Below are positions 34,401 through 37,400 of a DNA stretch of 64,000 bases, piece by piece. The position numbers and the translations under genes are program-made. The notes under the pieces are model-generated. The model worked only from the letters and a program-made list of their open reading frames with translations. It was not told where the DNA came from and searched no databases. The DNA lies in NCBI GenBank assembly GCA_030264375.1, contig JASCQW010000112.1:28054906-28118905 (forward strand), in the 5' to 3' direction. The first letter of the stretch is position 1. Every line of letters begins with the position of its first letter. Source of the stretch: Carcharhinus longimanus (taxonomy: Eukaryota).

Positions 34401-37400
34401 AACTGAAGTATAGATATTTCTGGTCTTGCCTGCTACAGGAACCATAATGAGTGGGACAGAAAATTTGGCGGACCATTTAATGTTGACCTCAAGTGGGAAT
34501 TTCATGTCTTGGGCACACATGGCTGGAAAATTCCACCCTTGAACTTAAGGAATTGAGATATGGAGAGTGCACATGCAAATGGAGTTGAGGAAAATGATCA
34601 GCCATAAAAATTGTACTGAATAGCAGAGCATGTTTAAGAGATCACATGGTCTACTCCTGTAGCTATATTACTCACCTGTGCAATAGCCCACTTCACCATT
34701 GGACCACAAGCCAAAGATGCTCTGTTGACTATTTCGTAGTTGTAGCTTGGATTGGACATGTAGTTTTTCTTCATCTTCTCACGAATAACATCACTGATGA
34801 ATAAAAATGAACAATGTTAATACAACTGCCCTCTTGAAATTTTAGGGACGGAAATTTATCAGTGTGCTAGAGCGCTAGTTAAAAATTAGGTGGTGCATAG
34901 CAATGAAGAGCTGCAACACAGTCAAAATGCAAGATAAATGTGATTTTTAAAATAAAAATAATGAATACCTTAATTCTTCAGTATTAAAGTTGACTATGCT
35001 GGTGATGAAATTATCTCTGATAATAACTTGTCTGATCTTTTTCCAGTCATTTGTCTCCTCACCCAGCAGGAGACAGATTGATTCTAACGCGAGTTTTACT
35101 GCAGCAGGTGGATTGGCCATGGCTCTCACTTCAACAAGATGCTGCTTCTTTATAGAGCTCACAGCTAATAGAGGGGTGAAAAGAAAGGGGCCATAAATGG
35201 ACATGCAAAAGGATAAGGGTGTATACAGCCACTGGGATTTGAAAGGAAATCTTTTACTTGAAGACCAGCAGTACATTGTGTCACCCAAACAGCAAATTTC
35301 TTTGGTAATAAATGCTATGCCTAAAATCTTTTAAAATTCGATTCAATTATTAATTGCTTTGGTAGTTTTTCAGCTTTAAGCTTTGGCTGGTCTTCTGGGC
35401 AATTTCCTTCTAACCCAGCAACTGCATGCACCCCATTATTCACCTGATTTCGTCAGCTGAAAAATTTACTATGGTCGGAATGAAGTTTTCCCTCATAATG
35501 ATCGATCGGATTTGTTTCCAGTCAGTTGTACTTTCGCCCAGGAGAAGACAGATTGACTCGAGTGCTAGCTTCACTGCACCTGGCGGATTAGCCATTGAAC
35601 GAACCTCTACCAAGTGCTGCTTCTTGATCGATTTTACAGCTAATCAGACCAGCACCGTAGGCCACAGTGCAAATAAACAGTAAGAGAAAGTGAAGATTAG
35701 GGGAGAAGAAAATCGAGAGATAAACACCACACAGAAAAGATCAGTTATTCAGTTGTTTAAAAAGGTAGAAAATTAATAGGATTATAGTTCCAAAAAATAT
35801 AAACTAAATAAAATGTTACTACAGATAGCAATTCAGCATACTAGATAAATTTCATTAAAAGATATATTTTATAGAAAAAGCTCAATTCAAAACACATCTA
35901 ACCATTCTGAGCCTCAATAACAGCAGGCTCTACCATGTCCAGATCTTCCTTTACTTTCATCTGTTTGTCAGCAATAATTTCCTGTTGCTTGTGAAGCTGC
36001 TCCTGAATTTCTTGACTCATAACCTATCAAAGATAGTGAAAATGTCTCATTTGATCAGGCTTTGCTCTGAGCCCAAAATTTTCATTCCAAATGAAGAGTT
36101 CTTGAGCTAAATTACCTTTTTCTTTTCAGCTTCTTGTTGATCCTTCACCATTTTCTTCAACTTATCATTGGCTGCTGCATTTTTAACCTCCAATTCTTGG
36201 CTCTTAATTCTCAGATCACGCCGCAATTCCTCAACCTGAAATGAGTGAAATTTTCTTTTTAAAAAAAAGCAAGCATTTATCATGACATTTCCATTGCAAG
36301 TCAATCAGAGCCACCTTGCATTAGTATCCAGGTCTACATTTACTTGGAGCAAAAGCTGTTAATATTCTTTGGTTTACTGGTAAAAGAAAATATTTTTACA
36401 CATTAACAAATAAATGAACACTAGAAAAATATGATATCCCTGAAAAAAAAGGATGGCCAAAGGTAAGAGAAAAAATCCATATTGGATTTACAAAAATGTA
36501 AGATGTTTAGTAAGGTTTTCTGCCATTTCTGTGCTTAATACAGGTAGCGGTGTAGATGGAGAAACCAACCACCATTTGGAGCATTAGCCCTTGAGGCCTC
36601 AATGATACTTAGATACTACAAGACATGAGCCACCATACCAAAGGGGAATTTAATTTCATTCAATCTTGCACATACATTAACGTCTCAAGCCAATATAGTG
36701 TACAAGTCTAATGTGAAGATCTCAAAGGATTAGTTCAGACAAAAGCAGCGAACTTGCTGTGTGTTAACTTAATAATCATTAACATTAACGTACAAAATTT
36801 GCAAGGTTAATACTTGGGGAATAGTTATATGAAATCCAAAAGGATGGGAGAAATGGGGAAGAAAGGAAACAAGTCATGTTAGATTTACAAGATGCAACAG
36901 TATCTTTACGAGAAAGCGAAATCCATATTAGTATGCATTCTCATAACCACAACACAAGATTCTTGGATCTTTACTAGTTGTTAGTTAACAATATTAGTAC
37001 CATATCTGTACCTTGCTCAGAAACAAATACACCCAAGTTTAGGCCAAAAAATCTCAAAATAAAAGCCACTGCTCAAACAGAATCCCAAAGCTTAGTGAAA
37101 AATTCCTTCAAACAGCACAGTAAAAGTTTGGCACCATGATTACCAGGAAAAAAAACTTAAATTATGCATTGCGATTTTATGACTTGACGACCATACCTGA
37201 TCTACTGTTTCCTTTATCTTTCTCAGACCAACATTTAAATGCATCTGTTGCTCCTCCAATTCACTACGCTTTTCATTGAACATGTTGGCATAGTGGTTAA
37301 TGAAGTCCAGATAGTGGCGAGGAGTGATTGCCATTATTCTGCCTCCACGTTTGGCCAGCCGAGTATTTGCCTAATAAGAAAAAAATACTTGTACTTCAGC

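Follow-up and report, generated by a model that had tools for sequence, protein, structure and literature searches.

A predicted stem in the intron between two alternative DYNC1H1 microtubule-binding exons may keep them from being joined

Most of the DYNC1H1 gene lies on the minus strand of the window (the whole stretch of 64,000 nt of DNA that was analysed). Between two constitutive exons it carries two exons, A and B, which are homologous, equal in length and in the same phase, with intact AG/GT splice ends. They agree at 48/64 residues and 137/196 nucleotides, correspond to about residues 3296-3359 of the human protein, within the microtubule-binding domain, and were the sole two copies found by a genome search. 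The reading frame is kept with either exon alone, whereas inclusion of both, skipping of both, or inclusion of both with the intervening intron leads to an early stop. The solved vertebrate structures that matched these exons, among those inspected, are of the A type, and the two versions are entered in databases as X1/X2 isoforms. A literature search covering openly accessible main texts brought up no publication that deals with the DYNC1H1 exon pair of vertebrates or with B. The positions of all features are collected in Table 1. Elsewhere in the gene, two DYNC1H1 exons (40952-41083 and 41169-41339) are found on the plus strand, opposite to the remaining gene, near an N gap (40163-40545) and with a partial copy on the minus strand at 40162-40100; a local assembly inversion is the likely cause.

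Table 1. Features of the DYNC1H1 exon pair and its intron, and related loci
Feature	Position	Strand	Basis or remark
Upstream constitutive exon, 121 nt	35903..36023	-	splice joints
Intron preceding exon A	35640..35902	-	164-nt AG-free zone, longest among 43 introns
9-mer at exon A acceptor	35646..35654	-	same letters as helix 3 3' arm; weak candidate for a competing partner
Exon A, 196 nt	35444..35639	-	mammal-type microtubule-binding domain core; joints in run X9
A-B intron, 279 nt	35165..35443	-	GT-AG; single genome match (search with a caveat on repeats)
Helix 1, 5' arm (intron nt 10-30)	35414..35434	-	predicted fold
UGCAUG site 1	35425..35430	-	within helix 1, at its sole mismatch
Helix 2, 5' arm	35401..35410	-	predicted fold
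Helix 3, 5' arm	35386..35395	-	predicted fold
Loop, 116 nt	35270..35385	-	varies between species; predicted inner helices not kept
Helix 3, 3' arm	35260..35269	-	predicted fold
Helix 2, 3' arm	35242..35251	-	predicted fold
Helix 1, 3' arm	35216..35236	-	predicted fold
Second branch point candidate (-50)	35214	-	yUnAy fit; 2 nt past stem; U2-pairing region would overlap stem base
UGCAUG site 2	35202..35207	-	between stem base and likely branch point
Likely branch adenosine for exon B (-30), candidate	35194	-	yUnAy fit
Exon B, 196 nt	34969..35164	-	homology to exon A; joints in run X9
Second predicted partner of helix 1 5' arm	34889..34913	-	18 pairs, -23.8 kcal/mol; downstream of exon B
Downstream constitutive exon, 118 nt	34676..34793	-	splice joints
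Tandem-exon arthropod-like loci	L020, L041-L043, L048		metagenome scan

The use of both exons was followed in public sequencing runs. At least half of the words of 34960-35700 were present in 20 of the 24 listed runs (12 studies), and four runs were compared with the window: X9, X14, X15 and X18, none of which is recorded as RNA, X9 and X18 being probable RNA by our guess. The evidence from these two runs consists of contigs, which report presence only and may miss rare forms. In X9, the joints of the upstream exon to A, of the upstream exon to B, of A to the downstream exon and of B to the downstream exon were all present, and neither an A-B joint nor a double-skip joint was listed among its contigs. 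In X18, the joints upstream-A and A-downstream were detected, again with no A-B joint listed, and a separate contig joins across the intron before A. One contig in each of X9 and X18 spans exon A, the A-B intron and exon B unspliced; in X18, exon B was listed only in such an unspliced contig, which extends from the last part of exon A through the intron and whose last 17 letters are unplaced. The intron before exon A is also retained unspliced in X9. No weight is given to contig depths as a ranking of the isoforms, nor to the missing cover of the intron that follows exon B. The four exclusive joints of X9, and the lack of a listed A-B joint in both X9 and X18, bear out the proposal, made earlier from the sequence, that A and B are a mutually exclusive pair. 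The absence of an A-B joint is also expected under nonsense-mediated decay (NMD), since double inclusion stops early.

The sequence-only reading had described a three-helix stem in the A-B intron, and all six arms were located again on the minus strand where it had placed them. Helix 1 comprises 21 positions with one C-A mismatch and five G-U pairs, helix 2 pairs as described (35410-35402 with 35250-35242) and can take one further U-G, and the pairing of helix 3 is perfect. The stem runs from nt 10 to nt 228 of the 279-nt intron, leaving 51 nt, and totals 40 predicted pairs, or 80 paired positions. Its predicted pair probabilities were 0.9-1.0 in the core and 0.6-0.9 at the terminal pairs, and it was stable in three contexts of 421-1110 nt. 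When the intron was folded against shuffled sequences, as that reading had proposed, the minimum free energy was -75.5 kcal/mol (z -3.45), with 0/200 shuffles as good. The adenosine suggested as the branch point of exon B also stands as a candidate, with a fit at -30 to yUnAy, the branch point motif, and with the second fit at -50 beside it. The intron further contains two of the 12 UGCAUG sites found within 37,475 intronic nt; UGCAUG is the RBFOX motif.

Helices predicted inside the loop, with pair probabilities of up to 0.9, were rejected as conserved parts, since one of their pairs is broken in X14 and that stretch of X18 does not align. Some further structural details were noted around the stem. 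An A-C mismatch is a context favoured by ADAR, and the A of the helix 1 mismatch (35222) is a possible editing site, where editing would close the pair inside UGCAUG site 1. Just before the exon A acceptor, an 8-pair hairpin with G-U pairs (35670-35652, minus strand) closes the longest AG-free zone of the gene, which has a candidate branch point near 35697. The last part of exon B pairs with the following intron in a 12-pair helix (35001-34990 with 34925-34914, minus strand), which encloses the exon B donor.

To place the fold among chance structures, 47 of the 121 intronic 279-nt tiles were run with 20 shuffles each, and three of these 47 reached z <= -3.45, so that the global fold score alone is not unique. 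Three intronic tiles, at 5258-5536, 14172-14450 and 28178-28456, folded on the transcribed strand with z -4.8, -4.9 and -3.7 (20 shuffles), the fold of the one at 5258-5536 being strand-biased. The opposite strand of the A-B intron gave z -0.17, and none of the 47 tiles had a strand gap as large as its 3.28, the nearest being 3.25. The duplex between the donor end and the acceptor end (nt +7 to +66 with -120 to -25) had -60.5 kcal/mol (z -6.3, 0/300 shuffles) and was the strongest among the 32 introns of at least 200 nt, the runner-up of the 31 others having -30.8 kcal/mol, in a comparison for which the paired segments were picked after the stem was known; 9/51 junction calls had been removed from the intron set beforehand as duplicates or wrong calls. 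On the opposite strand, this duplex still reached -51.9 kcal/mol, since the arms of helices 2 and 3 form near-perfect inverted repeats. Therefore, the claim of a strand-specific stem, which had been argued from its G-U pairs, holds mainly for helix 1, since helices 2 and 3 pair on both strands, and the G-U argument for selection at the RNA level is weaker than first claimed. A search of Rfam returned no family at gathering score, and its two matches (E 2-5), far below threshold, lie outside the intron.

Conservation of the stem was followed in close relatives. In X14, a DNA run from a related species, seven substitutions and two deletions were listed in the intron: none in the 80 paired positions, two substitutions in the 23 inter-helix linker positions, and five substitutions and both deletions in the 116 loop positions. 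Paired and unpaired positions thus differed (0/80 versus 7/139 substitutions; Fisher p 0.04), with p 0.015 when deletions were counted and p 0.048 for paired positions versus linkers; the figure for the nearby-intron background was 8%. The variants came from 40 of 166 rows, which hold few of the changes of X15, X9 and X18; the X14 rows in the arms were taken as complete, as inferred from flat depth and a single contig there. No compensatory pair was seen among the listed rows. In X18, positions 35276-35373, wholly in the loop, are replaced by 95 unalignable letters and both arms align, with four further changes within 35374-35473, beyond the listed rows. Conservation of the stem in relatives, one of the expectations raised with it, is thus seen as spared arms in X14 and as divergence confined to the loop in X18. 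The flanking introns are equally conserved (three listed changes in 263 nt and two in 175), no change is listed in exon A or exon B, and the sparing of the arms may partly reflect a general constraint on a regulated cassette. Exon A was free of listed differences in X14 and of any in the contigs of X9 and X18, the flanking exons having 4-6 each in X18, and this lack of differences amounts to extra constraint on its synonymous sites.

Beyond these relatives, B-type isoforms were named from lamprey, hagfish, sturgeon, reedfish, zebrafish, salmon, frogs, turtle and snake, and both Xenopus and zebrafish carry exon B. Together with exon B they formed one clade of 29 rows with support 97/96, in a tree of 64 columns whose bootstrap had not settled and whose B clade includes one long-branch arthropod row. 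Judged from these sequences, exon B has a range extending from lamprey as far as turtle and snake. Among the matches, B-type rows from birds or mammals were lacking, which is weak evidence of absence, and locus L010 has exon A alone with no relic of exon B. A metagenome scan yielded 77 loci, five of which (three distinct, arthropod-like) have tandem microtubule-binding exons. In the tree, the second copies of these arthropod-like loci are placed separately from vertebrate B, and the three arthropod introns between tandem copies had no comparable duplex between donor and acceptor ends. The second-copy donors of L020, L043 and L048 have GCAUG at +5 to +9, and P0004 is another two-copy record of invertebrate type. 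None of the 77 loci contained a complete vertebrate A-B intron, a GTDB scan gave no match, and a search of read-through frames revealed no close relative of the A-B intron.

The arms in other vertebrates were therefore read indirectly, through unnamed open reading frames that run through introns and were taken as degenerate DNA. The read-through peptides P0053 (1/400 shuffles) and P0018 (3/400) aligned collinearly with the 3' arms, and P0024 (3/400) and P0013 (12/400) with the 5' arms. Each of the four aligned better than to any of 34/34 other introns; with unanchored shuffles the counts were 0/300 for P0053, 16/300 for P0018, 7/300 for P0024 and 25/300 for P0013, within 21 comparisons in all, made with degenerate codons. 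P0019 missed the arms, and P0025 matched in the loop instead. P0053 appears reptile-like, because it has its flanks in common with P0005, a record placed with king cobra; P0018 is frog-like as judged by eye, and both are absent from the exon tree. The frog-like P0018 has a forced yUnAy at -31, consistent with the -30 candidate of the A-B intron. These alignments suggest that the arms of the stem persist in tetrapods. For an apparent matched shift of helix 2 in tetrapod-type records we make no claim, as the best cross-record pairing (1/200) among 60 combinations was not significant.

Teleost-type peptides mostly failed to align to the arms, P0161 giving 13/400 shuffles with 3/34 introns, and a small teleost hairpin, P0002 with itself, was not supported either (73/200 shuffles). 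Two contigs of one assembly, L004 and L022, carry teleost-type exon B and exon A, respectively, and the break between them falls in the A-B intron, so that its 5' part is missing. In L004 there is no stem-forming 3' half; at least 146 AG-free nt, 81% pyrimidine, precede exon B, and no UGCAUG occurs in its 148 nt upstream of that exon. The teleost-type P0002 and P0001 imply A-B introns of 170 and 116 nt. Four teleost-type records share a motif that forces yUnAy; in the three of them that include the donor, it lies at +35, although the motif carries little information and other branch candidates exist. On this evidence, the teleost-type relatives may qualify for linear steric exclusion.

Closure of the stem would leave 9 free nt on the donor side and 21 on that of the branch candidate in the A-B intron described here, or 30 nt in total, in agreement with the distance of about 30 unpaired nt that had been proposed as too short. 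This is below both the modelled minimum of 42 nt and the measured minimum of about 50 nt. The former derives from a yeast model, in which a stem inside the A complex needs at least 10 nt on one side, at least 20 nt on the other and at least 42 nt in total (Rangan et al., PMC12350175, in the part available); in a human system, 50 nt let assembly proceed and 35 nt abolished it (Keiper et al., PMC6692369, likewise). As the linker lies below these published limits, steric exclusion is the favoured reading. Opening the outer six pairs would give a 42-nt linker at a cost of 11.6 kcal/mol, and 10 pairs would cost 15.4 kcal/mol; linkers of 50 and 56 nt would cost 15.4 and 22.5 kcal/mol. Freeing 20 nt after the donor would take about 16 kcal/mol, and splicing of A to the downstream exon may itself require that. 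Spliceosomal helicases are able to overcome barriers of such size, and in the model the opening cost would be a real barrier, yet one within their reach.

In the mechanism that we propose, the intron would zip into the 40-pair stem and bring the A donor to about 30 free nt from the likely branch point of B. A single spliceosome would not fit on so short a linker, and joining of A to B would fail. Each site by itself would have just enough free RNA to be used with the outer exons, because the stem begins only at nt 10 and stops 22 nt short of the branch candidate; use of the A donor may open part of helix 1. When both exons of a transcript are recognised, the intron would be retained or the transcript lost through the early stop. 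The mechanism draws on the sequence, the predicted fold, the four joints, the unspliced intron in RNA contigs and the spared arms; it would in addition entail folding in the cell, branching at the candidate, an actual block to joining and breakdown of the resulting by-products. We regard steric exclusion by folding, with NMD as a likely backup, as the best reading, and put its chances at about even. The broader account, in which an over-tightened zipper makes an intron with an ordinary branch point unspliceable by folding alone and so enforces the choice of microtubule-binding domain in the single cytoplasmic dynein-1 motor, the pair is older than the jawed vertebrates, tetrapods have the stem as well and teleosts arrived at an equal block through a distant branch point, is offered tentatively, at somewhat short of an even chance.

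Competing folds could instead choose the exon, as in ATE1, where pairings between and around the two exons set exclusivity and ratio according to the available part of PMC7797038. In such a switch, which is compatible with a steric block, the 5' arm of helix 1 would re-pair downstream of exon B and loop B out, a further 5' arm, that of helix 3 or of helix 2, would mask the exon A acceptor, and RBFOX at the two UGCAUG sites would tip the balance. The second partner (34913-34889) is matched by 4 and 24 of 1000 shuffles, and its sole change in X14 turns a G-C into a G-U pair. Pairing with it costs 7.5 kcal/mol relative to the main stem, however, and 10/185 intronic tiles, that segment included, bind the helix 1 arm equally well. 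On this strand of the window the 9-mer is found only at the exon A acceptor and in the 3' arm of helix 3, and the exon A acceptor ranks first among 42 intron ends; yet the masked state costs 29 kcal/mol and reached at most 0.07 in simulated elongation. Pairing of the helix 2 5' arm with the exon A pyrimidine tract (35715-35704) was rejected, since it formed only before the 3' arm is made, with the fold cut 5 nt upstream. The two UGCAUG sites would presumably favour A on the RBFOX map, but the upstream region of exon B in L004 has none. We consider such a switch unlikely as the main role of the stem; competing pairings and UGCAUG may set the ratio on top of the steric block.

Exclusivity could also result from NMD and ordinary exon competition, the stem being neutral, a helpful zipper or a means of positioning regulators. 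Exons of 196 nt are not divisible by three, so that A+B, double skipping and intron retention would each stop early, and 377/629 human clusters have such lengths (PMC5740500, in the part available); zipper stems, moreover, generally aid splicing in the available text of PMC12350175. Joining reads were found in only 83 of those 377 clusters, other controls being inferred for the rest (PMC5740500), the two runs show an unspliced A-B intron and not an A-B joint, and the 30-nt linker is shorter than that of every zipper stem as defined in PMC12350175; we consider this explanation improbable. The stem could also have arisen as an inverted repeat, by chance or from a transposon, or belong to a separate RNA (snoRNA, miRNA precursor or editing substrate), and play no part in exon choice. 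This would accord with the three equally well-folding tiles, the strong reverse-strand duplex and the ADAR-favoured mismatch of helix 1. The intron has a single genome match and no Rfam family near gathering score, though, and its arms, which can probably be traced to tetrapods, were spared while the loop diverged; we hold this origin to be very improbable. Exclusion forced by structure is a plausible and partly supported model for DYNC1H1.

If steric exclusion by folding is true, exon exclusion of this kind could be encoded by RNA shape as well as by linear distance, and surveys that count only donor-branch distances below 50 nt would miss such cases. With the A-B stem, the 42-nt limit modelled for stems within the spliceosome could be tested on a natural case. 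Independently of this, the exon pair enables many non-mammalian vertebrates to make two dynein-1 microtubule-binding domains that differ at 16/64 residues, and the presence of B in zebrafish and Xenopus makes the question of a two-version dynein-1 directly testable.

Among known systems, exons 2/3 of alpha-tropomyosin and 4a/4b of OGDH, whose joining is blocked by a donor-branch distance under about 50 nt (PMC7969005, PMC6692369, in the parts available), resemble the A/B pair in being duplicated exons with a block attributed to closeness of donor and branch point; a short distance of this kind was reported for 57/629 human clusters (PMC5740500, likewise). In those genes it is the linear distance that counts, and the branch point is distant and the AG-free tract long, whereas the A-B intron would be shortened only by its predicted fold: it has 250 nt from donor to branch candidate, the candidate lies at -30, the first yUnAy is at +94, and AGs occur throughout, with an AG-free zone of 67 nt. 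The tract of the teleost-type L004 has the layout of distant-branch-point exclusion, as described for OGDH in the accessible text of PMC7969005. The A-B stem is also like the yeast zipper stems of the RPS17B type (PMC12350175, in part), since a long stem ties the donor end to the branch-point end. Those zippers leave 42-85 linker nt and promote splicing, whereas the A-B stem leaves 30 nt, lies between alternative exons and is a proposed blocker. Its start at nt 10 and its end at 22 nt before 35194, if that is the branch point, fall just within the zipper bounds of at least 10 and at least 20 nt; its linker falls short of the zipper range and would reach 42 nt after opening of six pairs.

A mutually exclusive exon is in print for Schistosoma DHC1 (PMC3228551; mentioned in PMC5100056), likewise an alternative pair that sits midway in the gene of a cytoplasmic dynein heavy chain and has a split codon at either end; the likeness is one of description, and the portions available give no domain, mechanism or vertebrate data. 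No stem that blocks splicing by over-shortening was found in the main texts searched, nor in the available portions of PMC11802352 and PMC2724269. Human ATE1 exons 7a/7b (R1-R5; PMC7797038, in part) are likewise a vertebrate pair with pairings between the exons and, as candidates here, partners outside them. ATE1 masks one of two acceptors by competing helices (PMC7797038), whereas the acceptors and donors of A and B lie outside the main stem. Unlike in ATE1, the main A-B stem outweighs its predicted competitors, by the 7.5 and 29 kcal/mol given above.

Steric hindrance and RNA structure are reportedly coupled in the title of a 2013 study by Yue et al. on Dscam exons 17.1/17.2, in which the hindrance is said to be linear and the structures to tune the ratio. 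A precedent for exclusion based on a stem, if there is one, would most likely be found in Dscam exon 17.
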